Source of the DNA: Nitrosomonas europaea
Lineage (GTDB): Bacteria; Pseudomonadota; Gammaproteobacteria; Burkholderiales; Nitrosomonadaceae
DNA: 32,000 bases
Assembly: GCF_900167395.1 (NCBI RefSeq)
Contig: NZ_FUWK01000019.1
Location: 1 to 32,000 of the forward strand
Direction of reading: 5' to 3'
The notes under the pieces were generated by a model. That model made no database searches and was not told where the DNA came from. It saw nothing but the letters and a program-made list of their open reading frames with translations. This document shows, one piece after another, positions 97 to 28,948 of the stretch. Numbering within the stretch: position 1 is the stretch's first letter; every line of letters begins with the position of its first letter. A program made the position numbers and the translations under genes.

Positions 97-287
97 GGGA
101 TTACTCCTTTACGCTTTCGCGTTTGGTTGATAAAGATTCGCACCTCTATCAAACCGGGTAATCCCACCTCTTGGCAAGACCTGCTGTCAGATCAAATCTG
201 AACTACTACACTTCAGGTACACAGAAGATTGCACTGAAAATACTCTCCTCCTGATGAAGGATATTGCGGGCGGTAGGGTGATCCTGA

Positions 288-686
288 TTAAGGTTGTAAT
301 GCTTCTGCCACATTTTCCTGTTGGACACTGCGTGCAGGGAGTTTCTCTCGAATTCTTGCAGCCTTACCGGATCTGTCTCTCAGATAATAAAGTTTTGCTC
401 TGCGTACTGCACCGCGCCGTTTGACTTCCATACTTGCGATGAGGGGTGAATAAGTCTGGAACGTACGCTCGACTGCCTCGCCGCTGGATATTTTTCTTAC
501 GATAAATGAAGAATTGAGTCCGCGATTGCGTTTGGCGATAACGACTCCTTCAAAAGCCTGGACACGTTTACGGTCACCTTCTACTACATTTACGTTAACC
601 ACGAGTGTATCGCCTGGTGAAAAATCAGGGATGGTTTTTCCCAGTCTTTCAATTTCTTCCCGTTCTAGTTGTTCGATCAAGTTCAT
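288..686 (-). CDS. rplS: 50S ribosomal protein L19
   Basis: 132-aa ORF starting [32 protein letters not shown]..., a typical L19. It is the last gene of the conserved rpsP-rimM-trmD-rplS order. Confidence 0.95.
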
Positions 687-7114: not shown

Positions 7115-8386
7115 ATGCACATTCATATCCGAAATGGTCGTCTGATCGATCCCGGCAGTGGAATGGATCGTACTGATGATCTGTATCTGGCTGAAGGCAA
7201 AATCGTGTCGATCGGTTCCCGGCCGGATGGTTTTCATGATGATCGTGAGATCGAGGCCGGTGGAATGATCGTATGTCCCGGTCTGGTTGATTTGTCAGCA
7301 CGCTTGCGTGAGCCGGGACTTGAATATATGGCTACGCTGGAATCAGAGCTGGAAGCTGCGGTAGCAGGAGGGGTGACCAGCCTGGCCTGTCCTCCTGATA
7401 CAGATCCGCCATTGGATGAGCCGGGCCTGGTGGAGATGTTGAAGCATCGTGCCCGTAATCTCGATCAGGCGCGAGTGTATCCGGTGGGCGCGCTAACCCA
7501 GGGACTCAAGGGAGCGCGTTTGACTGAAATGGTCGAACTGCACGATGCCGGTTGTGTCGCATTTAGTCAGGTCGATGCGCCCATTGCCAATCTGCATGTG
7601 CTGATGCGAGCCATGCAGTACGCCGCCACGTTTGGTTTCAAGGTTTGGCTGCGTCCTCAGGATATACATCTGGCCAATCACGGTGTGGCCCATGAAGGTG
7701 AGATTGCCACCCGTCTTGGCTTACCGGCAATTCCGGTGTGTGCAGAGACGATTGCACTGGCCAGTATTCTGTCACTGATGAAGGAAACGGGTGCCAGCGT
7801 ACATCTCTGCCGTATTTCCAGTGCAGAGGGAACCGCGCTGGTGCGGGCAGCCAAACGACAGGGACTGCCGCTGACCTGTGATGTTTCCATCAACCATGTG
7901 CATCTGACCGATATGGATATTGGTTTCTTTGATGCAAATTGCCATCTCATGCCGCCACTCAGAAGCCTGGCAGACCGGGATGCGTTGTGCGTCGGATTGA
8001 TGGACGGAACGATCGACGCAATCTGTTCGGATCATGCGCCTGTAGATGAAGATGCCAAGTCGTTGCCATTTGCTCAGGCTGAAAGCGGTGCCACCGGGCT
8101 GGAGTTGCTGCTGCCTCTCACGCTGAAATGGGCGGTGGAAAACAGGTTGTCATTACCTGAAGCGCTGGCGAGAATTACATTCCATCCTGCACGGATTCTG
8201 GGAATCGAGACCGGGCAGCTGGCAATAGGTGCTGTGGCTGATTTATGTATCTTTGATCCTGATGCAAACTGGGTCGTCAGTCACACCGAATTGAGAAGCC
8301 AGGGTAAAAATACGCCATTTCTCGGAATGGAATTATACGGGCGTACCCGATTCACCCTGATTGGTGGACGTATCGTGTATGGTTGA
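7115..8386 (+). CDS. pyrC': Dihydroorotase-like protein, probably the non-catalytic PyrC' partner of PyrB
   Basis: Amidohydrolase fold with blocks CPGLVDL..RLREPG and CSDHAP. The DxHxH metal motif reads DLSAR (7289..7303). ATG 7115 is 1 nt after the pyrB stop. The pyrR-pyrB-pyrC' order matches Pseudomonas. Confidence 0.8.
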   Translation: MHIHIRNGRLIDPGSGMDRTDDLYLAEGKIVSIGSRPDGFHDDREIEAGGMIVCPGLVDLSARLREPGLEYMATLESELEAAVAGGVTSLACPPDTDPPLDEPGLVEMLKHRARNLDQARVYPVGALTQGLKGARLTEMVELHDAGCVAFSQVDAPIANLHVLMRAMQYAATFGFKVWLRPQDIHLANHGVAHEGEIATRLGLPAIPVCAETIALASILSLMKETGASVHLCRISSAEGTALVRAAKRQGLPLTCDVSINHVHLTDMDIGFFDANCHLMPPLRSLADRDALCVGLMDGTIDAICSDHAPVDEDAKSLPFAQAESGATGLELLLPLTLKWAVENRLSLPEALARITFHPARILGIETGQLAIGAVADLCIFDPDANWVVSHTELRSQGKNTPFLGMELYGRTRFTLIGGRIVYG

Positions 8387-8505
8387 TAACAATTCCCGGG
8401 AAGCACTGGTTTCGTCAAGACCATATTAAAATCCCGGGTTATTCGGCAGACCGGGTATTCTGAATATTCATCGATAACAAAAACTTTTTTTGAATTATTA
8501 CTGAT

Positions 8506-10611
8506 ATGAAAAACCCGCTGTTAGATTTTTCCACGCTTCCTCGCTATGAGGAAATTCGGAACGAACACATCACGCCTGCTATGGACGAGTTGTTGCGCGA
8601 CTGCCGTGCGGTAGTGAATAGAGTTAAAAATGCGACAGAATCTCCTGACTGGCAGGATTTTGTGCAACCGGTGGTGGATGCGAATGAGCGTTTGTCGCGT
8701 GCGTGGGGGCAGATAGCGCATTTGAATGCGGTCATGAATAACCCGGAGCTGCGCGAAATCTATAACGCCAATCTGCCGCGTATTACGCAGTACTATGCCG
8801 AGTTGTCGCAGGATCCAGTATTGTTTGAGAAATTCCGGCAGTTGCGGGCAGATCCGGCATTCAATGATTTAAGTCAGGCACGCAGGAAAATTGTGGACAA
8901 TCAGTTACGTGATTTTCACTTGGGAGGTGCCGAACTGCCGCTGGAAGATAAAGCCCGGTTCATGCAGATTCAGGAAGAACTGTCGGCGTTGAGCTCAAAA
9001 TTCAACGATAACCTGTTGGATGCAACCAACGCGTTTTCTTTGTTTATAGAAAACCGGGATGAACTTGCCGGAATTCCGGAGGATGTATTGCAGGCGGCGC
9101 GTGAAGCGGCAACCAAAGATACTTCGATTACTGTGCCGGGCTGGAAATTTACTCTGCATGCACCTTCCTATCTGCCGGTCATGCAGTATGCGGATAACCG
9201 CAGTTTACGTGAACGGATGTATCGGGCATATGTGACACGGGCGAGTGAGCTTGAAGCTGTTCCGGAGCAGACTGTGAATCGTGACAACATGCCTTTGATC
9301 GAAAAGATGCTACGTTTGCGCCAGGAGGAAGCAAGGCTGCTGAGTTACGATTGTTACGCACAGGTGTCACTGACTCCCAAGATGGCGGAAACGCCGCAGC
9401 AGGTGCTGGATTTTCTGAATGAGCTGGCAGCCAAAGCGAGACCTTACGCAGAAAGAGATCTGGCAGAGCTGCAGCAGTTTGCCGCTGATAAGCTGAAACT
9501 GGATCGACTCGAAATGTGGGATATTGCCTACGCCAGCGAAAAGCTGCGTATCGAGCGTTATGCTTTTTCTGAGCAGGAGGTCAAGCAATATTTCCCGGAG
9601 AACAAGGTATTGCCTGGCATGTTCCGACTGGTGGAGACTCTGTACGGCATACGTATCAGCGAAGCAGAGCCGGCACGTAACATTCAGTGCTGGCATCCGG
9701 ATGTGAAATTTTTCGATATTGCTGACGCGAATGGTAATTTGCTGGGGCAGTTTTATCTGGATCTTTATGCCCGCCCCGGTAAGCGTGGCGGGGCTTGGAT
9801 GGATGACGCGATCACCCGGCGGAAGATTGAGGTACCTGAAATCGGCCGTTCCGAAATCCAGGCGCCAGTTGCCTACCTTACTTGCAATTTTTCGGCACCC
9901 GTGACGATCGACGGCCAGTTGCGCCCGGCATTGTTCACGCATGATGAGGTAATTACGCTGTTTCATGAATTTGGTCATGGATTGCATCATTTGCTGACCC
10001 GGATGGATGAGCTGGGTGTTTCCGGTATCAACGGGGTCGAGTGGGATGCGGTTGAACTGCCCAGCCAGTTCATGGAAAACTTCTGCTGGGAGTGGGAAGT
10101 ATTGCGTGGTATGACTGCGCATGTGGAAACCGGCAATCCGCTACCGCGCGCGTTATTCGATAAGATGCTCGCAGCCAAGAACTTCCAGAGTGGCCTTCAG
10201 ACTTTGCGTCAGATTGAGTTTGCCTTGTTTGATATGCATTTGCACACGGATTTTGACCCGCAGGGCAGTGAAACCGTGTTACAGCGTCTGGATAAAATCC
10301 GCCAGCGGGTTGCCGTCATCATTCCACCCGCGTTCAACCGGTTTCCGGACAGCTTCGGACATATATTTGCTGGAGGTTATGCTGCCGGTTATTACAGTTA
10401 TAAATGGGCGGAAGTATTGTCTGCCGATGCTTACAGCCTGTTCGAAGAGAATGGTGCCGGCCAGGTGGTCAGTGCAAAAACTGGAGAGCGTTTCTGGCAT
10501 GAAATTCTTGCCGTAGGTGGTAGCCGCCCGGCACTTGAATCATTCATTGCATTTCGCGGACGCGAGCCAAAAATTGATGCGTTGCTGCGGCATCATGGTA
10601 TGGCAGCCTGA
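8506..10611 (+). CDS. prlC: Oligopeptidase A (M3 family zinc metallopeptidase)
   Basis: 701 aa with the HEFGHGLHH zinc motif and the downstream E in GVEWDAVELPSQFME, an M3 architecture. Confidence 0.9.
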   Translation: MKNPLLDFSTLPRYEEIRNEHITPAMDELLRDCRAVVNRVKNATESPDWQDFVQPVVDANERLSRAWGQIAHLNAVMNNPELREIYNANLPRITQYYAELSQDPVLFEKFRQLRADPAFNDLSQARRKIVDNQLRDFHLGGAELPLEDKARFMQIQEELSALSSKFNDNLLDATNAFSLFIENRDELAGIPEDVLQAAREAATKDTSITVPGWKFTLHAPSYLPVMQYADNRSLRERMYRAYVTRASELEAVPEQTVNRDNMPLIEKMLRLRQEEARLLSYDCYAQVSLTPKMAETPQQVLDFLNELAAKARPYAERDLAELQQFAADKLKLDRLEMWDIAYASEKLRIERYAFSEQEVKQYFPENKVLPGMFRLVETLYGIRISEAEPARNIQCWHPDVKFFDIADANGNLLGQFYLDLYARPGKRGGAWMDDAITRRKIEVPEIGRSEIQAPVAYLTCNFSAPVTIDGQLRPALFTHDEVITLFHEFGHGLHHLLTRMDELGVSGINGVEWDAVELPSQFMENFCWEWEVLRGMTAHVETGNPLPRALFDKMLAAKNFQSGLQTLRQIEFALFDMHLHTDFDPQGSETVLQRLDKIRQRVAVIIPPAFNRFPDSFGHIFAGGYAAGYYSYKWAEVLSADAYSLFEENGAGQVVSAKTGERFWHEILAVGGSRPALESFIAFRGREPKIDALLRHHGMAA

Positions 10612-17142: not shown

Positions 17143-17312
17143 CGCAGCCCATATATACCATGGAATAGAGACTACGCATTTGTCGGAAGCGTAAGGTTCT
17201 CAGACTGTGAATTATTGGTTGATTGGTTGCTGCTTATAAACAGGTTGAGTGATCACAGTATCCGTTCAGTCCATTCAGTAAATTGGCCAGAAAATATTTC
17301 TAGGGGAAGATT

Positions 17313-19145
17313 TTGAGTTCGACAATAGCCAAGTTGGGCGTTCCGCCAGTACAAAAAAGTAATTCCCTGTCTTCCAGAATAGATGTCGTTGTGCCAACGC
17401 CTACAGTTAATTCATCGCCTCAGAAAAGAGCGGATTTTACAACTTTGGTGGAGTCGCTCGAGTATGCTGCACAAGGGGAAACTGGGTACAATTTCTACGA
17501 TTCGAGAGGTAATCTAAAATCTGTACTTGCATACAAAGACTTGTGTGCCAACTCGAAAATAATCGCAAGACGGTTATCCGGTCTTGGATTGGCGCGTAAC
17601 AGTCGGGTTGCTCTGATTGCCGATACTACTCCGGAGTTCATCGAGCTGTTTTTTGCATGCCGGTTTGCAGGCCTTGTTCCATTTGCGATGCCGGTACCTG
17701 TAAATCTTGGCAGTCGTGCAATCTATGTACAGCAACTGAGAGGTATGCTTGAGAGCAGTAAGGCAAGCGTTGCAGTCGCCAATCTTGATTTCGTTGAATT
17801 TCTCAATGAGGCGGTTGGCAGTCTGGTAAGTAGCGAACTTAAATGGAGCGGTACACCTGAACAGCTTGATTTGCTGCCGGAAGCTGACGTAGTGTTTTCC
17901 CCCAATACACCAGATGAAACCGCCTATCTGCAATTTACTTCCGGCAGCACTCGTTTGCCAAGAGGGGTGGTCATTACCGAGCGAGCTTTGATGACCAACT
18001 TGCGCGGTATCGTTTGCAATGGTCTTGATGTTCGGCTGGGTGACCGATGCGCTTCATGGCTTCCTTTTTATCATGATATGGGCTTGGTTGGTCTGGTATT
18101 GGCCCCTTTGGCGGCCCAATTATCTGTAGATTATCTGGCAACCCGGGATTTTGCAGTCCGCCCCCTGCAGTGGCTTAAGTTAATCAGTCGTAATCGCTGC
18201 ACTATTGCTTTCAGCCAACCATTTGGTCTCAAGTTATGTACGCTGCGTGCCCGTGAATCAGATTTGGCTGATCTGGATTTGAGCTGCTGGCGAGCGGCCG
18301 GTGTCGGTGCTGAGATGATCCGAATGGATACATTGAAAAGCTTTGCAGCTAAATTTGCTGCTGCGGGTTTCGATGAGCGTGCTTTTCTACCATGCTACGG
18401 GTTGGCTGAATCGACCCTTGCCGTCTCTTTCCCTGATATCAGCCGGGGAGCAAGGAGTTTGCGTGTGGATGCCAGAACCCTGATCGAGAAAAAGATTGCG
18501 GTGAGAGTCCAGGCAGAGGGTAGAAAATATAATGAATTCGTGAATTGTGGTCGCCCATTACCAGGCCATGAGGTCAGAATAGTCGATGACACGGATCATG
18601 AGGTCCCTCACATGACGGTGGGAAGTATTCTAGTCAGGGGGGGGAGTGTAATGAACGGGTATTTCAACAACGCAGAAGAGACCGCGAGAGCGATCAGACC
18701 GGATGGTTGGTTGGATACGGGTGATATTGGCTTTCTGTTCGAGGATGATTTATATATTACAGGCCGGCGAACGGATGTCATTATCGTCAATGGTAGAAAT
18801 ATACGAGCTCAGGATGTGGAAGAGCTGGCTGAACAACAGCCGGAAGTAAGGGCACGTGAAGCTTCTGCATTTGGAATCAGTAATGAGGATGGTTCGACAT
18901 CGGTTGTGCTGGTTGTTGAATGCAGACTCGCATCGGCAGTAGACCGGCAATCGCTTATCAATAGACTTCAGCAGATGGTATATATGGCATTCGGGGTAAG
19001 CTGTCTGGTTGAGTTAGTACCGCCGCATACATTGCCCCGGACATCTTCAGGAAAGTTGTCACGCTTTGCAGCACGTCAGGGATTCCTGCGGCGCGCAAAT
19101 CTGGAACAGCCCACTGCAGCAACGACTATTCATACCGCTGGCTGA
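17313..19145 (+). CDS. Fatty-acyl-AMP ligase / acyl-ACP synthetase (adenylate-forming superfamily)
   Basis: Motifs YLQFTSGSTRLPRGVVIT, YHDMGL, GWLDTGDIGF and GRRTDVIIVNGRNIRAQDVE, plus C-terminal SSGKLSR. TTG start 17313 follows AGGGGAAG (17302..17309), and there is no in-frame ATG for more than 120 codons. Alternative starts are TTG 17334 and GTG 17391. Confidence 0.85.
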   Translation: MSSTIAKLGVPPVQKSNSLSSRIDVVVPTPTVNSSPQKRADFTTLVESLEYAAQGETGYNFYDSRGNLKSVLAYKDLCANSKIIARRLSGLGLARNSRVALIADTTPEFIELFFACRFAGLVPFAMPVPVNLGSRAIYVQQLRGMLESSKASVAVANLDFVEFLNEAVGSLVSSELKWSGTPEQLDLLPEADVVFSPNTPDETAYLQFTSGSTRLPRGVVITERALMTNLRGIVCNGLDVRLGDRCASWLPFYHDMGLVGLVLAPLAAQLSVDYLATRDFAVRPLQWLKLISRNRCTIAFSQPFGLKLCTLRARESDLADLDLSCWRAAGVGAEMIRMDTLKSFAAKFAAAGFDERAFLPCYGLAESTLAVSFPDISRGARSLRVDARTLIEKKIAVRVQAEGRKYNEFVNCGRPLPGHEVRIVDDTDHEVPHMTVGSILVRGGSVMNGYFNNAEETARAIRPDGWLDTGDIGFLFEDDLYITGRRTDVIIVNGRNIRAQDVEELAEQQPEVRAREASAFGISNEDGSTSVVLVVECRLASAVDRQSLINRLQQMVYMAFGVSCLVELVPPHTLPRTSSGKLSRFAARQGFLRRANLEQPTAATTIHTAG

Positions 19146-19223
19146 TAACATAGTTTCCATCGGTAAGGCCAGATCTTCGCACGAGAAGGAGATGGAAGTT
19201 CCTTCTCATGTTCAGTACGCTTC

Positions 19224-20144
19224 ATGTTTAGAACTGTCGCATTAACGGGCGCCACAGGGTTTATCGGCCGAGTTCTTATCGCCAAGCTGGCAGCGTCCGG
19301 ATGGAAGGTTCGTGCGTTGGCCAGGCGAGTACCTTTCAGACAGGATCTTCCACTCGTAGAATGGATTTGTGGAGATATGAATTGTGACAGTGTATTGTGT
19401 GACCTCGTTTCTGGTACCGAAGCGGTTATACACTGTGCAGGAGCAATCAGAGGAAAATCCTGGGATGATTTTTCCCGAACCAACGTGACTGGAACAAGAA
19501 ATATATTAAGAGCTGCTTCCGGAGCACCTTCCTGTTCAAGATTCCTATTTATTTCTTCACTGGCTGCGCGTGAACCCCATCTCTCCTGGTATGCACGGAG
19601 TAAATTCGAGGCTGAGCAGCTGATCCCGGGATTCTCCGGACTGGCATCGACTGTATTCAGGCCGGCAGCGGTTTACGGTCTGGGTGACAAAGCGATGCAG
19701 CCATTTTTTCAGGCGATGCGCTATGGTATTCTCCTCGTGCCGGGAGATCCTGGTAACCGTTTCGGCCTGATACATGTGGACGATATGGTTGCTGCCATTC
19801 ATAACTGGCTCGAGGCCGGGCAGCCTGTGAAGGGTACTTATGAAATAGATGATGGAACATCAGGCGGATATGACTATACGTCCATCGCTGCGCTTGCTGA
19901 ACAAGTTCTGAGCAGGCCGGTGCATTGTCTCCAGATACCTTTGGGCGGTATACGTATGCTAGCCCGTTTTAATTTATGGCTGGCGCATCTCCTGAATTAT
20001 GCTCCGATACTGACACCGGGCAAAGTGATGGAATTTCAGCATCCAGACTGGACGTGCGATATTTCTTCTCTGAAGAGAGAACTGGCTGGCTGGTCTCCGG
20101 TAACTAAACTGGAAACGGTGTTGCCCCTGCTTGTCAGAATGTAA
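19224..20144 (+). CDS. NAD(P)-dependent extended SDR (epimerase/dehydratase family), candidate 3-keto reductase (CerR-like)
   Basis: MFRTVALTGATGFIGRVL carries the Rossmann GxxGxxG motif, YARSK is the YxxxK catalytic motif, and the protein is 306 aa. Confidence 0.8.
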   Translation: MFRTVALTGATGFIGRVLIAKLAASGWKVRALARRVPFRQDLPLVEWICGDMNCDSVLCDLVSGTEAVIHCAGAIRGKSWDDFSRTNVTGTRNILRAASGAPSCSRFLFISSLAAREPHLSWYARSKFEAEQLIPGFSGLASTVFRPAAVYGLGDKAMQPFFQAMRYGILLVPGDPGNRFGLIHVDDMVAAIHNWLEAGQPVKGTYEIDDGTSGGYDYTSIAALAEQVLSRPVHCLQIPLGGIRMLARFNLWLAHLLNYAPILTPGKVMEFQHPDWTCDISSLKRELAGWSPVTKLETVLPLLVRM

Positions 20145-20288
20145 CGGATATTTATTCTTGAAGCATTCCAAATGTTCGTCGACAATATATTGCTTTCGCG
20201 GGTATCACTTCTGTTTTGATACCGGGTATTTTCATATTCCCTGATCCGGGAATGATTTGTCGATATGAACTGTTCAGGGATTGATCTC

Positions 20289-20546
20289 ATGTCTGAAGTA
20301 ACTCAAGAGCAAATTACAGCACTGCTTTGCCAGCGCCTGGCAAATTTTACGGAGATTGAAACGGAAGTATCTCCGGAAACGAACCTCATCACGCATTTAG
20401 CGATTGATTCGGTCAAACTGTTGAATCTAGTGATGGAAATCGAGGATCAGTTTGATATATCCGTTCCACTGAACACACTCGTAGATGTTCTGACGGTACA
20501 GGACCTCGCCAATCTGATCTACAAAATAAAATCATTATCACAATGA
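20289..20546 (+). CDS. Dedicated acyl carrier protein
   Basis: LAIDSVKLLNLVMEIEDQFDISVP is a phosphopantetheine-attachment helix II, with the Ser codon at 20409..20411. The protein is about 85 aa from ATG 20289 (the ORF track starts at 20265). The stop overlaps the next gene's start (ATGA). Confidence 0.8.
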   Translation: MSEVTQEQITALLCQRLANFTEIETEVSPETNLITHLAIDSVKLLNLVMEIEDQFDISVPLNTLVDVLTVQDLANLIYKIKSLSQ

Positions 20547-21727
20547 GTCTGCTGGAAAAACTTGATGCAGCCGCAGCGGCAAGGAAAGCACAATTACCCG
20601 AAGGTATTGGGGCTTTTGGCATTCCTATAGAAGAATCCTACTCGGCAACCGAAGCAAGAATCGGCAAACGTCGTGTATTGATGCTGGGAACCAACAATTA
20701 CCTCGGGCTCAGTTTCGCACCAGAATGCAGAGAAGCCGCTCATCAGGCCATTGATCAGGAAGGTACCGGTACCACCGGTTCGCGCATGGCCAATGGCAAT
20801 TACTATGGTCATCGAGCACTGGAGCGTGAGTTTGCAGAATTTTATAAATATCGTGAATGTATTGTTTTTACAACAGGTTATCAGGCTAATTTAGGAACGA
20901 TTTCTGGATTGGTAGGGGCGGGTGATATCGTGCTGATCGACGGGGATGCCCATGCCAGTATTTATGATGGCTGTATTTTGAGTGGGGCGGATATCATTCG
21001 CTTCCGGCATAACGATCCGGCTGATCTTGAAAAACGGCTTCGTCGGTTGGGTGATCGCAGTCGAAATACACTGATCATTATCGAGGGTATTTACAGCATG
21101 CTAGGAGATCAGGCTCCTTTGGCTGAGATTGTGCAAATAAAAAATACCTATCAGAGCACTTTACTGCTTGATGAAGCTCATTCACTCGGTGTTCTGGGAG
21201 AAACCGGTCAGGGGTTAGTGGAGAAAACCGGGATGAATGATGAGATCGACTTCATAACTGGAACTTTCAGTAAGAGTTTATGTGGTATCGGTGGTTTTTG
21301 TGTCAGCAATCACCCTCAGCTTGACCAGCTCCGGTATGTAAGCCATCCCTATATATTCACTGCTTCTCCTTCACCGGCAACTATTGCTTCCACACGTGCT
21401 GCTTTGAAACTGTTGCAAGAGGGGCGTTTATTACGTGAACGTTTGTGGCAGAATGCTCATCGGCTTTATTCCAGCCTTGAAAAGAGCGGATATCGTCTCG
21501 GTCCGCAACCCGGCCCCATCGTGGCCATCTTGCTTGATAATCCCAGGCAGGCACTTACACTGTGGAATGGACTGATGGAGCATGATATTTATGTGAATCT
21601 GGTATTGCCCCCTGCTGCACCGGAAGGAAAGTCACTGGTGCGTTGTAGCATCAATGCAGCCCATACGACTGAACAGATTGATCAGGTGTGTGATGTTTTT
21701 TCTAAACTGCATCCTATCGTAGCGTAA
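20543..21727 (+). CDS. spt: PLP-dependent alpha-oxoamine synthase, serine palmitoyltransferase-like
   Basis: The PLP lysine sits in GTFSKS (codon 21272..21274). Blocks NNYLGL, GTTGSRMANG, TGYQANLG, DAHASIYDGC, IRFRHND, LLDEAHS, PYIFTAS and LVRCSINAAHT match my memory of Sphingomonas SPT better than BioF/Kbl. Confidence 0.82.
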   Translation: MSLLEKLDAAAAARKAQLPEGIGAFGIPIEESYSATEARIGKRRVLMLGTNNYLGLSFAPECREAAHQAIDQEGTGTTGSRMANGNYYGHRALEREFAEFYKYRECIVFTTGYQANLGTISGLVGAGDIVLIDGDAHASIYDGCILSGADIIRFRHNDPADLEKRLRRLGDRSRNTLIIIEGIYSMLGDQAPLAEIVQIKNTYQSTLLLDEAHSLGVLGETGQGLVEKTGMNDEIDFITGTFSKSLCGIGGFCVSNHPQLDQLRYVSHPYIFTASPSPATIASTRAALKLLQEGRLLRERLWQNAHRLYSSLEKSGYRLGPQPGPIVAILLDNPRQALTLWNGLMEHDIYVNLVLPPAAPEGKSLVRCSINAAHTTEQIDQVCDVFSKLHPIVA

Positions 21728-22751: not shown

Positions 22752-23546
22752 ATGCCAGTATTAGCCTGGATCATTTTTGCCAGCCTAGCCAGTGGTTTAC
22801 TGAGTATTGGACTGGCAGCACTATTTGCCCTGAATGTCCACAGTAATAAGTGGATTTCTGTATTAATTTCCTACGCGATCGGCGCACTTCTTGGTGCAGC
22901 ATTTCTGAATGCATTGCCTGAGGCACTTGAGCTCACAGAGTCTCCCAAGCAACTGACGTTGATCCTGCTGCTTGGTATTCTTATTTTCTTTATTCTGGAA
23001 AAGCTTTTGTTATGGCGCCATTGTCATTTATCGGAATGTGAGGCGCATGAACCCGCTATACAGATAAAGTCATCAGATGTCCACGATCATGGTCGCAGTG
23101 GCATGATGATCGTGTTGGGTGACACCTTTCATAATTTTGTAGATGGTATCCTGATTGCAACGGCTTTTATGGCGGATATTCAACTCGGAATCGTTACGGC
23201 CATTGCCATTACTGCACACGAAATTCCGCAGGAGGCAGGAGATTTCATCATTTTGCTCAATTCGGGTTTTACCCGGGCGCGTGCCCTCTGGCTCAATCTG
23301 TTATCAGGTGCGGCGACACTGTTTGGCGGGTTGCTGGGTTATTTCATGCTATACCAGCTGGATCACATGATAGCGCCCATACTCGCTATTGCTGCGGCAA
23401 GCATGATATACGTAGCGATGTCCGATCTGATCCCCAGTCTGCATAAACGGCCGGAAATCAGAGCGACCATTCAGCAGGTCACACTCATCATCTTGGGAAT
23501 CAGTACGATATGGCTGATAGGGTTGTTCTTTGGTCATAACCATTGA
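22752..23546 (+). CDS. ZIP family divalent metal (Zn/Fe) transporter
   Basis: A multi-TM protein with HNFVDGILIA and AHEIPQEAGDFIIL signature helices and a His/Cys-rich loop (HCHLSECEAHE...DVHDHG). Confidence 0.87.
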   Translation: MPVLAWIIFASLASGLLSIGLAALFALNVHSNKWISVLISYAIGALLGAAFLNALPEALELTESPKQLTLILLLGILIFFILEKLLLWRHCHLSECEAHEPAIQIKSSDVHDHGRSGMMIVLGDTFHNFVDGILIATAFMADIQLGIVTAIAITAHEIPQEAGDFIILLNSGFTRARALWLNLLSGAATLFGGLLGYFMLYQLDHMIAPILAIAAASMIYVAMSDLIPSLHKRPEIRATIQQVTLIILGISTIWLIGLFFGHNH

Positions 23547-26178
23547 ACCTGACAATCTCAGGTGAATATTGCCTGGTTCTTGCATCGGCTGGCGCTGGTT
23601 GTGGGTTGAAGTTGCCACGATATCCTGCAGCCACCCTGTAATAAAGTGTCCGCAATAAAACGCCATCGTGTCGATAGATGGAGCGAGAATGTATCTTTCC
23701 CAGATTGATTAACCCGTTCTCAAAATTTCCCGTTGCATTACTGGATTCCAATGCCTGCTGTTTCATCCCGATCAGTAGTATCGGTTGATCAGAAGGAGGT
23801 TCGACACGATTCCAGAAGCTGTACATGGCGGCGTGTTGACCAAACAGGTTGCGTGACCGGATATCCAGGGCAGGCGTGTCCTTATAAAATGCAAGTGCAC
23901 TGGCGGTCGACCACTTACTCATTCCGATCACGATTGGCATTTCTCCCGTTGTTTGCCTGATTTCATCAGCAATTTTCTCGACTTCTGCTGTAGCTTCTTT
24001 CCAGAAATAATGCTCGCTCAGGAACTGGTAAGGTAATCCTGGTATTCCCAGTGTGACGTAATGCAGGATGAAGGCATAAGTCAGTAATGACAGGACGATC
24101 ATCGGTTGCCAGGCAGCACGAAGTCGCGCAGAGAGGCCCATGGGCACATCATTCTGGCCGATCATCCAGGCCATGGTAGGTATCAGTGCCAGCCAGAGGG
24201 GGCTGGTCCAGTGAAAACGCAGAGGATCGAAAGTGCTGATTGCCAGAAAAACCAGTAAGGGAACCCCGGTGAATATGCCGATGAAGAGATATTTTCGGGG
24301 AGCCTGACAGTAACTCAGGGAAATGGATCGTAACGCAAATACAGCAGCAATCAGTCCAACCGGGGTAAGTACGGTTGCAATCTGGAGTATCAATAGATGT
24401 GTGGCAAACGTATGTTGTGTATTCCCGACTCTGCCAGTCTGGAACAGGAAGGAAGCCCAGTCATTTTCCATGTTCCAGATAATTACCGGACTGAACAGGA
24501 TCAGTGCAATCAATATAGCGAGATAAGGGTGAGGACGGAGCAACCAACGGCGCGCAACAGGATCCAGGACAGCATAAATCAATGCGGCGATGCCAAGCAG
24601 ACCAAGCGTATATTTGGATAAAATCCCCAGCCCGAAAGCAATGCCGACTCCAAGCCATGCCTGGCTCTGATTGGCAAGCAAGGCGCGTTCCATGTAATAG
24701 AGTGTGGCAGCCCAGGCTGCAATCAGTGGAGCATCCGGTGTCATTGCCAGCCCTGTTGCAAAACCGAATGGTACGATGGCAAACAGCAGTACCGAACGCA
24801 TGGCAGTGGGTTTGTCGTAAAGGTTACGCGCAAGCGCGAATACATAAGCCATTGCAATCAATCCACACAGGAAAGCACCGATTCTGACTCCGAACTCATT
24901 ATGGCCAGCCAGCGTGGTTCCCAGCCAGATCAACCAGGCAACCATCGGGGGGTGATCGAAAAAGCTCAGATCTATGTGTTGTGCATACTGCCAGTAATAG
25001 GCTTCATCAGGTATCAGTTGCGCTACATCCATGTAGGCCAGGCGTAACAGGATGACAAAACAGACGATCCCCACAGAGGCAACGCGCCACCGTGTGTCAG
25101 TGGAAACGGGGGGCTCTGTCCGAGGGAATACATAAAAAGCAGAGCCGAGGTAGTTCACCATTGCTGTTGTCAGGATGGCAGGGAAAATTGCCCATTCAGC
25201 AGATATACCCCAGGTATAGACCAGCCAGGCCAGGATAGCGCCTCTCAGAAGCAGTGCAAATACACCAACTGTCAGGAAACGGATGAATTGCTGCCAATGC
25301 AGATGACCCGCGTGATGCAGCCGGAACGACCATTTTGAATTTATGGTGTAGTTGAAGCTGGCGGCAGCAATGAAACTGGAAATATGTGCCGAAGCCAGGC
25401 TGGCTCCGTGCCCGGTCATCCACTGAAAAATCAGGACGTCGACGAAGACTCCCAGAAATCCGACAATGGCAAAGCGGCTGGCTGTGTGGAATGAGACGGT
25501 TCCTCCCGCCAGGGTGATGAGTTGCAGTAAATAAACAAGATGGTGGGTGAGGGAAAGTTTGGAATTGCCATGCAGCCGATCGCGGAAACTGATGGGTATT
25601 TCCTTTACACGCAACCGGCCTTGTCCGGTCATCAGCAATTCCAGCAGGATCTTGTAGCCGCGAGCATTTTTTGTGATGTTTCCGATCAATTCCCGCCGGA
25701 AAGCAAAAAAACCGGAAGTTGCATCATTTACATCGCAAATGATGCGTGCGAGCCAGCCACCGGCTCGTGACAGCCAGAGCCGGTAAAAGGGCCAGCCAAC
25801 AGTATTGCCGCCAGCGATATACCGACTGCCGATGGTGATGTCATGGGTACCATCCAGTATCGGCTGGATCAGTGCGGCCAGTTTGTCCGGCGGGTGGCTC
25901 AGATCAGCATCCATGACGGCAATGACTTCATACCTGGCGACCGCTGTTCCATCGAGAATGGAAGCGGTCAGATCAGGTTGTGCGCGCCTCTCGATCAGAC
26001 GCACGTTATGCGTGTTTTGCCATTGTCTGACTTTGTCAGGCGTGCCGTCAGTAGAACCATCGTCCACGATAATGACTTCGAACTGGCTTCCCAGAGTATC
26101 AAGAGAAAAAATGCCTGATAACAGCGGATCGATATTTTCAGCTTCGTTCAGGGTGGGAATAATGAGTGAAAATGACAT
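23500..26178 (-). CDS. Tri-domain fusion of a GT2 polyprenyl-phosphate glycosyltransferase, a GtrA-like 4-TM module and an ArnT/PMT-type GT-C glycosyltransferase
   Basis: Residues 1-215 (26178..25534) read IIPTLNEAENI, VIIVDDGSTDGT, VMDADLSHPP, DATSGFFAFRR and RLHGNSKLS, which is DPM1/ArnC-like. Residues ~233-352 (25482..25123) form four hydrophobic helices with FNYTINSKWSF, which is GtrA-like. Residues ~363-892 (25092..23503) read LIPDEAYYWQYAQHIDLSFFDHPPMVAWL (Asp-Glu codons 25008..25003) followed by many TM helices and a soluble tail, which is ArnT/PMT_2-like. Confidence 0.85.
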   Translation of the reverse strand: MSFSLIIPTLNEAENIDPLLSGIFSLDTLGSQFEVIIVDDGSTDGTPDKVRQWQNTHNVRLIERRAQPDLTASILDGTAVARYEVIAVMDADLSHPPDKLAALIQPILDGTHDITIGSRYIAGGNTVGWPFYRLWLSRAGGWLARIICDVNDATSGFFAFRRELIGNITKNARGYKILLELLMTGQGRLRVKEIPISFRDRLHGNSKLSLTHHLVYLLQLITLAGGTVSFHTASRFAIVGFLGVFVDVLIFQWMTGHGASLASAHISSFIAAASFNYTINSKWSFRLHHAGHLHWQQFIRFLTVGVFALLLRGAILAWLVYTWGISAEWAIFPAILTTAMVNYLGSAFYVFPRTEPPVSTDTRWRVASVGIVCFVILLRLAYMDVAQLIPDEAYYWQYAQHIDLSFFDHPPMVAWLIWLGTTLAGHNEFGVRIGAFLCGLIAMAYVFALARNLYDKPTAMRSVLLFAIVPFGFATGLAMTPDAPLIAAWAATLYYMERALLANQSQAWLGVGIAFGLGILSKYTLGLLGIAALIYAVLDPVARRWLLRPHPYLAILIALILFSPVIIWNMENDWASFLFQTGRVGNTQHTFATHLLILQIATVLTPVGLIAAVFALRSISLSYCQAPRKYLFIGIFTGVPLLVFLAISTFDPLRFHWTSPLWLALIPTMAWMIGQNDVPMGLSARLRAAWQPMIVLSLLTYAFILHYVTLGIPGLPYQFLSEHYFWKEATAEVEKIADEIRQTTGEMPIVIGMSKWSTASALAFYKDTPALDIRSRNLFGQHAAMYSFWNRVEPPSDQPILLIGMKQQALESSNATGNFENGLINLGKIHSRSIYRHDGVLLRTLYYRVAAGYRGNFNPQPAPADARTRQYSPEIVRFNGYDQRTTLSAISY

Positions 26179-28702: not shown

Positions 28703-28948
28703 TTACTGAGCTGCGTTGGCTGCTACGAAATCGATCGCTTCCTGAACCGTATTGATTTTTTCAGCTTGCTCATCAGGAATTTCGCATTCGAACTCTTCTT
28801 CGAGCGCCATGACCAGCTCAACAGTATCCAGTGAATCTGCACCCAGATCGCTGACAAAGGAAGATTCATTTTTGACATCTGATTCGTTGACGCCCAATTG
28901 CTCGGCTACGATTTTTTTGATGCGCTGCTCTATTTCAGTAATTTCCAT
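28703..28948 (-). CDS. acpP: Housekeeping acyl carrier protein
   Basis: [20 protein letters not shown]...[31 protein letters not shown] is a near-canonical AcpP. ATG 28948 is preferred over the ORF-track 28960. Confidence 0.93.

Follow-up and report, generated by a model that had tools for sequence, protein, structure and literature searches.

The window analysed here, a stretch of 32,000 nucleotides of Nitrosomonas europaea DNA, carries at positions 17313-21727 a cluster of four genes that is very likely the aasR-cerR-acpR-spt sphingolipid (ceramide) module of this organism. The original prediction, made from the sequence alone, had read the four products as a fatty acyl-AMP ligase (FAAL), a short-chain dehydrogenase/reductase (SDR), a private acyl carrier protein (ACP) together with a serine palmitoyltransferase (SPT), forming a Caulobacter-like module directed at a lipid of the sphingoid-base or ceramide type. 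With this, profile searches, comparison with structures in the Protein Data Bank (PDB), orthology with Escherichia coli BL21 and the literature (PMC9386255, PMC11324152) agree. For the four genes, our analysis demonstrates identity, orthology, conserved synteny and residues, and selective constraint; we infer that N. europaea expresses the cluster and accumulates ceramide or ceramide-phosphoglycerate.

aasR, 17313..19145, plus strand: specialised fatty acyl-AMP ligase / acyl-AcpR synthetase, 610 aa, TTG start
cerR (epi), 19224..20144, plus strand: NDUFA9-like extended SDR, ceramide / 3-keto long-chain-base reductase, 306 aa
acpR, 20289..20546, plus strand: specialised acyl carrier protein, 85 aa (93 aa from an alternative upstream ATG at 20265)
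spt, 20543..21727, plus strand: serine palmitoyltransferase, a pyridoxal phosphate (PLP)-dependent alpha-oxoamine synthase, 394 aa

Four intact, co-oriented plus-strand open reading frames had been expected at 17313-21727, and all were found there; likewise, each of the motifs quoted for them (TSGSTRLPRG, GRRTDVIIVNGRNIRAQDVE, SSGKLSR, TGATGFIG, YARSK, DSV and GTFSKS) is present in the translations. For acpR, the start at 20289, the second methionine, is the one annotated by most gene callers and gives the protein of 85 aa, while the longest reading frame spans 20265-20546.

The synthase belongs to the serine palmitoyltransferases

The spt product has a class I/II aminotransferase fold (Pfam Aminotran_1_2, 4e-51), and a RefSeq entry with the name 'MULTISPECIES: serine palmitoyltransferase [Nitrosomonas]' matches it at 100% identity. 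Its place among the alpha-oxoamine synthases was judged by the curated NCBIfam cutoffs and by the ranking of its PDB matches. The sole model of this enzyme class whose cutoff it passed is the equivalog NF047599, 'SerpalmtaseBetaP' (583.7 bits, cutoff 500); scores for the other models stayed below their cutoffs:

SPT 'AlphaP' model: 420 bits, cutoff 670
SPT 'CFB' model: 353 bits, cutoff 640
BioF model: 332.8 bits, cutoff 426.45
Kbl model: 308 bits, cutoff 460
CqsA-type model: 231.4 bits, cutoff 428
5-aminolevulinate synthase (ALAS) model: 225.4 bits, cutoff 338.55

The PDB matches of Spt are led by serine palmitoyltransferase structures:

Sphingomonas wittichii SPT: E=4.5e-118, the best match
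Sphingomonas paucimobilis SPT: E about 1e-108 (8e-109 for 2JG2)
Sphingobacterium SPT: E=3e-79
Kbl: E=4e-61
Cysteate-C-fatty acyltransferase (28eh): E=3.9e-57, ranking under all bacterial SPTs and under Kbl
BioF: E=3e-47
CqsA: E=1e-37

The prediction of an SPT-like synthase is thereby borne out, as the only equivalog passed is one for SPT and as SPT structures head the PDB ranking; a grouping with BioF, Kbl or CqsA, which would have spoken against it, was seen neither in the profiles nor in the ranking. The residues of the active site agree with this assignment. The PLP lysine K244 and the residues H137, D210, H213 and R367 align to K265, H159, D231, H234 and R390 of Sphingomonas SPT, and all five are invariant in 82 sequences.

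The three partner proteins

AasR belongs to the AMP-binding enzymes (Pfam AMP-binding, 6e-53) and exceeds the cutoff of the NCBIfam model NF006624, 'fatty acyl-AMP ligase', by a wide margin (884.6 bits, cutoff 600). Its best PDB match is 3PBK, the fatty acyl-adenylate ligase of E. coli (E=8.9e-162), and 79 sequences show no variation at the core residues of A3, A7 and A10.

The cerR product matches the Pfam families Epimerase, NAD_binding_4 and 3Beta_HSD (Epimerase/SDR, 4e-21), and no NCBIfam model reaches its cutoff with it. Its nearest solved structures are the NDUFA9/39-kDa subunits of complex I, a homology which has likewise been reported for CerR of Caulobacter (PMC11087976). The GxxGxxG, SS and YxxxK motifs are invariant in 79 sequences. 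Ahead of the Rossmann motif, CerR of Nitrosomonas is without an N-terminal extension.

AcpR carries a PP-binding domain (Pfam, 9.5e-11), the phosphopantetheine serine of which is invariant in 78 sequences. It passes none of the AcpP equivalog models (best score 42 bits, cutoff 84) and is only 28% identical to the housekeeping AcpP encoded in the same window. Failing the models for housekeeping AcpP and differing to this degree from the local acpP product, AcpR can be regarded as a dedicated ACP, as had been supposed.

Conservation across the Nitrosomonadaceae

A scan of species-representative genomes yielded 80 loci with 75-99% SPT identity, which belong to Nitrosomonadaceae except for a few generically labelled metagenome-assembled genomes (MAGs) and span the genera Nitrosomonas, Nitrosospira and Nitrosovibrio. 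The synteny check called for by the original prediction gave a uniform picture: the order aasR-cerR-acpR-spt is kept in every locus with enough upstream DNA (77/77). The flanks, on the other hand, vary by lineage, and a pgeF-zip-glycosyltransferase arrangement after the module is confined to the groups europaea, halophila, communis, mobilis and nitrosa. With a constant internal order and differing neighbours, the four genes behave as a unit.

The ratio of nonsynonymous to synonymous substitution rates (dN/dS) was determined against close relatives with unsaturated dS. It amounts to 0.04-0.05 for aasR, 0.08-0.21 for cerR, 0.03-0.07 for acpR and 0.03-0.05 for spt; given this overall range of 0.03-0.21, the module is not a decaying relic.

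Some loci have features of their own. In Nitrosospira, an MsbA-like ABC exporter of 582 aa (ABC_membrane and ABC_tran domains) lies directly after spt on the same strand, at 7277-9025 of locus L072 in Nitrosospira sp. Nl5, and is a candidate lipid flippase. About 2 kb downstream of the module, Nitrosomonas oligotropha Nm45 (locus L076, 9345-12266) has hopanoid-type genes, which encode a radical SAM protein with DUF3463, a GT2/GT21 glycosyltransferase and MlaC. Four loci (L086, L057, L075 and L084) come from MAGs that bear the label Bacteroidetes, Gammaproteobacteria or 'Proteobacteria', and the spt module on them is of the Nitrosomonas type, with 77-78% identity; these odd labels probably reflect mis-binning or coarse labelling, not horizontal transfer.

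Operon signals

The TGA stop codon of acpR and the ATG of spt overlap as ATGA. Between 16800 and 22000 no terminator-like site was found, with 5.3 expected by chance, and promoter-like matches at the cluster are at chance level (9, with 7.9 expected). The overlap and the lack of terminator-like sites across the cluster fit co-transcription; the lack of terminator-like sites is only weakly suggestive of a single transcript. An Rfam search detected no regulatory RNA close to the cluster. The 78-bp spacer between aasR and cerR holds an 11-nt inverted repeat, CACGAGAAGGA / TCCTTCTCATG (19180-19210; 91% complementary, 9-nt loop), which lies 14 nt 5' of the cerR start; as a T-run is missing after it, the repeat is not terminator-like.

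A proposed pathway

What chemistry would such a module perform? AasR, as a FAAL-type enzyme unable to use coenzyme A (CoA), would adenylate a free long-chain fatty acid and load it onto the phosphopantetheine arm of AcpR. From the acyl-AcpR and L-serine, Spt would form 3-oxosphinganine in a condensation that sets CO2 free. A ceramide synthase of the GNAT type, encoded elsewhere in the genome, would add the N-acyl chain, and reduction of the 3-keto group by CerR would take place on the free base or on the oxidised ceramide. That AasR is specific for AcpR, that Spt prefers acyl-AcpR and that CerR is required are predictions drawn here from the orthologs in Caulobacter, in E. coli BL21 and in S. 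wittichii. According to the study on these proteins, AcpR of Caulobacter and BL21 carries a 4'-phosphopantetheine, AasR of the same two organisms acylates AcpR, not CoA or housekeeping ACPs, and acyl-AcpR is the preferred substrate for 3-oxosphinganine synthesis by the Spt enzymes from Caulobacter, E. coli B and S. wittichii (PMC9386255).

Whether reduction or N-acylation comes first is a matter of dispute in the field. A eukaryote-like order, in which condensation is directly followed by reduction, is the model of Olea-Ozuna et al., while work of the Klein laboratory found Spt and the bacterial ceramide synthase (bCerS) to be cytoplasmic and CerR to be periplasmic, with oxidised ceramide accumulating in a cerR mutant (PMC11087976). 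This accumulation and the periplasmic location of CerR argue for acylation before reduction (PMC11087976), and the better localisation data suggest that CerR may act on oxidised ceramide in N. europaea as well. Of the three-step chemistry originally envisaged, adenylation with ACP loading and condensation are kept in the proposed pathway; reduction straight after condensation is one of the two published models.

Alternative readings and their weight

The alpha-oxoamine synthase fold is common to enzymes that use different amino acids, and the synthase could in principle take cysteate, alanine or glycine, in which case the product of the module would be the precursor of a capnine-type sulfonolipid, or else a long-chain amino alcohol, 1-deoxy or free, and not a sphingolipid. 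Two features of the locus could be taken to favour this, the window being without a ceramide synthase and Spt differing from the Sphingomonas enzymes at one position. Arg378 of S. paucimobilis SPT contacts the carboxylate of serine; the residue aligned to it by the PPATP loop, codon 355 of spt (21605-21607), is a leucine. An arginine stands here in both Sphingomonas SPT structures, whereas among the Nitrosomonadaceae and BL21 sequences leucine is found in 81/82 and valine in one. As a sign of another amino-acid substrate, we rejected this exchange: BL21 Spt, with the same leucine and the same equivalog, makes 3-oxosphinganine from serine (PMC9386255), so a switch of substrate does not follow. 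The leucine appears rather to mark the 'BetaP' family of SPTs. Furthermore, Spt passes the SPT equivalog cutoff, the cysteate-C-fatty acyltransferase 28eh trails SPT in the PDB ranking (3.9e-57 vs 4.5e-118), and Nitrosomonas eutropha has cerS and the ceramide-phosphoglycerate genes elsewhere in its genome (PMC11324152). We regard a different amino-acid substrate as very improbable. A synthase of the BioF, Kbl, ALAS or CqsA/LqsA type, with its neighbours serving biotin synthesis, threonine catabolism, haem synthesis or an alpha-hydroxyketone signal, is scarcely credible. The similarity to these enzymes is substantial, at 225 to 333 bits, and annotation by the Joint Genome Institute (JGI) often names the homologs '8-amino-7-oxononanoate synthase'; against this, all four models remain under their curated cutoffs while SPT alone passed, the PDB ranking agrees, and the conserved partners AasR, AcpR and CerR are the published signature of a sphingolipid module. 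Profile cutoffs and PDB ranking may be said to have effectively refuted this identity already.

For the ceramide module as such, the leucine at the Arg378 position is one of several points that weigh against it. With YghO, the ceramide synthase of BL21, as query, tblastn found no ceramide synthase in the window or in 84 Nitrosomonadaceae loci. In a search for YghO homologs, the best 120 matches are all enterobacterial, with at least 79% identity, so that Nitrosomonas was not reached. In the literature searched, neither a sphingolipid or ceramide from any nitrifier nor expression data for the cluster in Nitrosomonas were found. In a lipidomics study of Nitrosomonas halophila ZJB1 (whole-cell data: Metabolomics Workbench DataTrack ID 6727, cited in PMC12804982), sphingolipids were a searched class, and the main text lists none. 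Some of these points also favour a genuine module that is cryptic, silent in the laboratory or used under stress only, so that N. europaea would normally be without sphingolipid: both reports and expression data are lacking in the literature searched, the main text on N. halophila lists no sphingolipid, and the promoter-like matches (9 vs 7.9 expected) do not rise above chance. The negative lipid evidence is weak, however, because standard lipid databases are without bacterial anionic sphingolipids, and the LIPID MAPS-based library of the N. halophila study would miss bacterial ceramide-phosphoglycerates. That the module is in regular use is suggested by strong purifying selection, by invariant catalytic residues and by a synteny that is universal in Nitrosomonas, Nitrosospira and Nitrosovibrio. 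We give a cryptic module little credence, and a working ceramide module is the reading that we retain.

Genomic neighbourhood

The stretch 10543-31727 of the window (21,185 bp compared) matches N. europaea ATCC 19718 (AL954747.1, 1,778,082-1,799,266, reversed) at 100% identity; the guess of a beta-proteobacterial, nitrifier-like origin was right. The neighbourhood had been described as a housekeeping one, with carAB-greA-ldt on the left and mltG-fab on the right, and the annotated flanks confirm this. To the left lie rplS, trmD, rimM, coq7, ruvX, pyrR, pyrB, prlC, carA, carB, greA and a gene for a YkuD L,D-transpeptidase; to the right follow pgeF, a ZIP transporter gene, a GT2-GtrA-PMT_2 fusion gene, mltG/YceG and fabF-acpP-fabG-fabD-fabH. 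Three further features are:

Housekeeping acpP, 28703-28945, minus strand: AcpP model 142 bits, cutoff 106
GT2 (ArnC/DPM1-like)-GtrA-PMT_2 (ArnT-like GT-C) triple fusion, 23500-26178, minus strand: 892 aa
RF02349, 'Proteobacterial sRNA psRNA2', 98-333, plus strand: Rfam 134 bits, gathering score 65, E=8e-33

The triple fusion looks like a self-contained polyprenyl-phosphate-sugar synthase and periplasmic glycosyltransferase; its gene and the convergent ZIP transporter gene share 47 bp at the 3' end of the former. The psRNA2 match lies antisense to the 3' end of rplS (288-686, minus strand) and downstream of it.

Implications for ammonia oxidisers

The prediction for ammonia oxidisers is that they make ceramide and perhaps ceramide-phosphoglycerate as well, and methods suited to the detection of these lipids have apparently never been applied to them. 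If found, sphingolipids would be a new lipid class for a group of biogeochemical and industrial importance, and they might affect the interpretation of biomarkers and our views of the ammonia-oxidiser outer membrane.

A more far-reaching idea, which we hold to be unlikely, is that sphingolipids serve all bacterial ammonia oxidisers as a structural lipid and have escaped chemical notice, possibly with a lineage-specific head group or with a role connected to the oxidative and nitrosative chemistry of ammonia oxidation. It derives from the fact that every Nitrosomonadaceae locus examined keeps the module under strong purifying selection. Two neighbouring genes might be considered in this connection, their tie to the module being one of position only: the ArnC-GtrA-ArnT-like fusion glycosyltransferase, three genes downstream in N. 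europaea-type genomes, and the MsbA-like exporter that directly follows spt in Nitrosospira.

Comparison with known systems

The cluster is already known. It has been published for N. eutropha C91, RefSeq names the N. europaea synthase serine palmitoyltransferase, and NCBI maintains a dedicated equivalog, so that the novelty implied by the original prediction was overstated. Padilla-Gomez et al. (2022) drew Neut_0458 (aasR), Neut_0459 (epi), Neut_0460 (acpR) and Neut_0461 (spt) in their Fig. 9 and placed the N. eutropha proteins in trees of the ACPs and the synthetases (PMC9386255, Fig. 9-11). A PLoS Pathogens paper of 2024 gives 43%, 38%, 44% and 51% identity of Neut_0458-0461 to the Caulobacter proteins (PMC11324152, Fig. 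7, Table S2D) and identifies a cerS at a distant locus, Neut_1100 (41% identical to CC_1154; PMC11324152 Table S2D), next to the ceramide-phosphoglycerate (CPG) genes Neut_1101-1106 (PMC11324152). Padilla-Gomez et al. likewise locate the ceramide synthase away from the cluster (PMC9386255). The published assignment, made by BLAST and phylogeny alone, concerns a sister species, whereas the window is N. europaea ATCC 19718. The two loci share their surroundings: acpP of N. eutropha, Neut_0467, lies six genes after spt, which matches the order spt, pgeF, zip, glycosyltransferase, mltG, fabF, acpP in the window. The statement that no product had been demonstrated chemically in nitrifiers is consistent with our literature search, and the lipid chemistry of nitrifiers is the sole remaining gap.

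A close parallel outside this family is in E. coli BL21(DE3) (NC_012971.2, 2,990,834-2,994,885), where ECD_02851-02854, encoding AasR, the epimerase/CerR, AcpR and Spt, have the same order and orientation as in the window. The window proteins are identical to their BL21 counterparts at 46% for AasR (ECD_RS14830, over 556 aa), 41% for CerR (over the full length), 36% for AcpR and 52% for Spt, with alignments that cover nearly the whole proteins. E. coli K-12 lacks the cluster. BL21 Spt falls in the same equivalog, NF047599 (599 bits), and it is an E. coli AasR whose solved structure, 3PBK, is the top match of the window protein. The surroundings differ. In BL21, yghO (cerS) lies divergently upstream and LptF/G paralogs are adjacent, and the window is without both; a tblastn search with the BL21 cluster neighbours (LptF/G paralogs, a YtfJ-like protein and others) found none of them in the window or in the 84 Nitrosomonadaceae loci. 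YghO itself (17283-18425 of the BL21 locus L006) matched no NCBIfam model; among its best 120 matches are homologs of at least 79% identity in many Enterobacterales (Serratia, Pantoea, Erwinia, Pluralibacter, Citrobacter and Kosakonia), mostly annotated 'N-acetyltransferase'.

The SPTs of S. wittichii and S. paucimobilis (PDB 2X8U and 2JG2) are the closest structural relatives of the window Spt, which shares with them the PLP lysine, the histidine, the aspartate and the equivalent of Arg390. They belong to the 'AlphaP' model, however, which the window Spt fails, and they have the arginine at position 378 where it has a leucine. In Sphingomonadaceae, moreover, aasR is unlinked, unlike in the window.

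It is the genetics and biochemistry of Caulobacter that define the ceramide pathway. The original prediction had called the Nitrosomonas order a mirror image of the Caulobacter crescentus one; in fact, the window is collinear with BL21 and, by the published gene numbers, with Caulobacter, where CC_1165 (aasR), CC_1164 (cerR), CC_1163 (acpR) and CC_1162 (spt) follow each other in the same transcriptional order and acpR precedes spt in the operon. In Caulobacter these genes are part of a 17-gene cluster with the bCerS, ceramide-phosphoglycerate and transport genes, whereas Nitrosomonas spreads these over three regions (PMC11324152). In its core of four genes, the cluster described here shows in textbook form how proteobacteria reach sphingolipids by the AasR/AcpR-dependent route.

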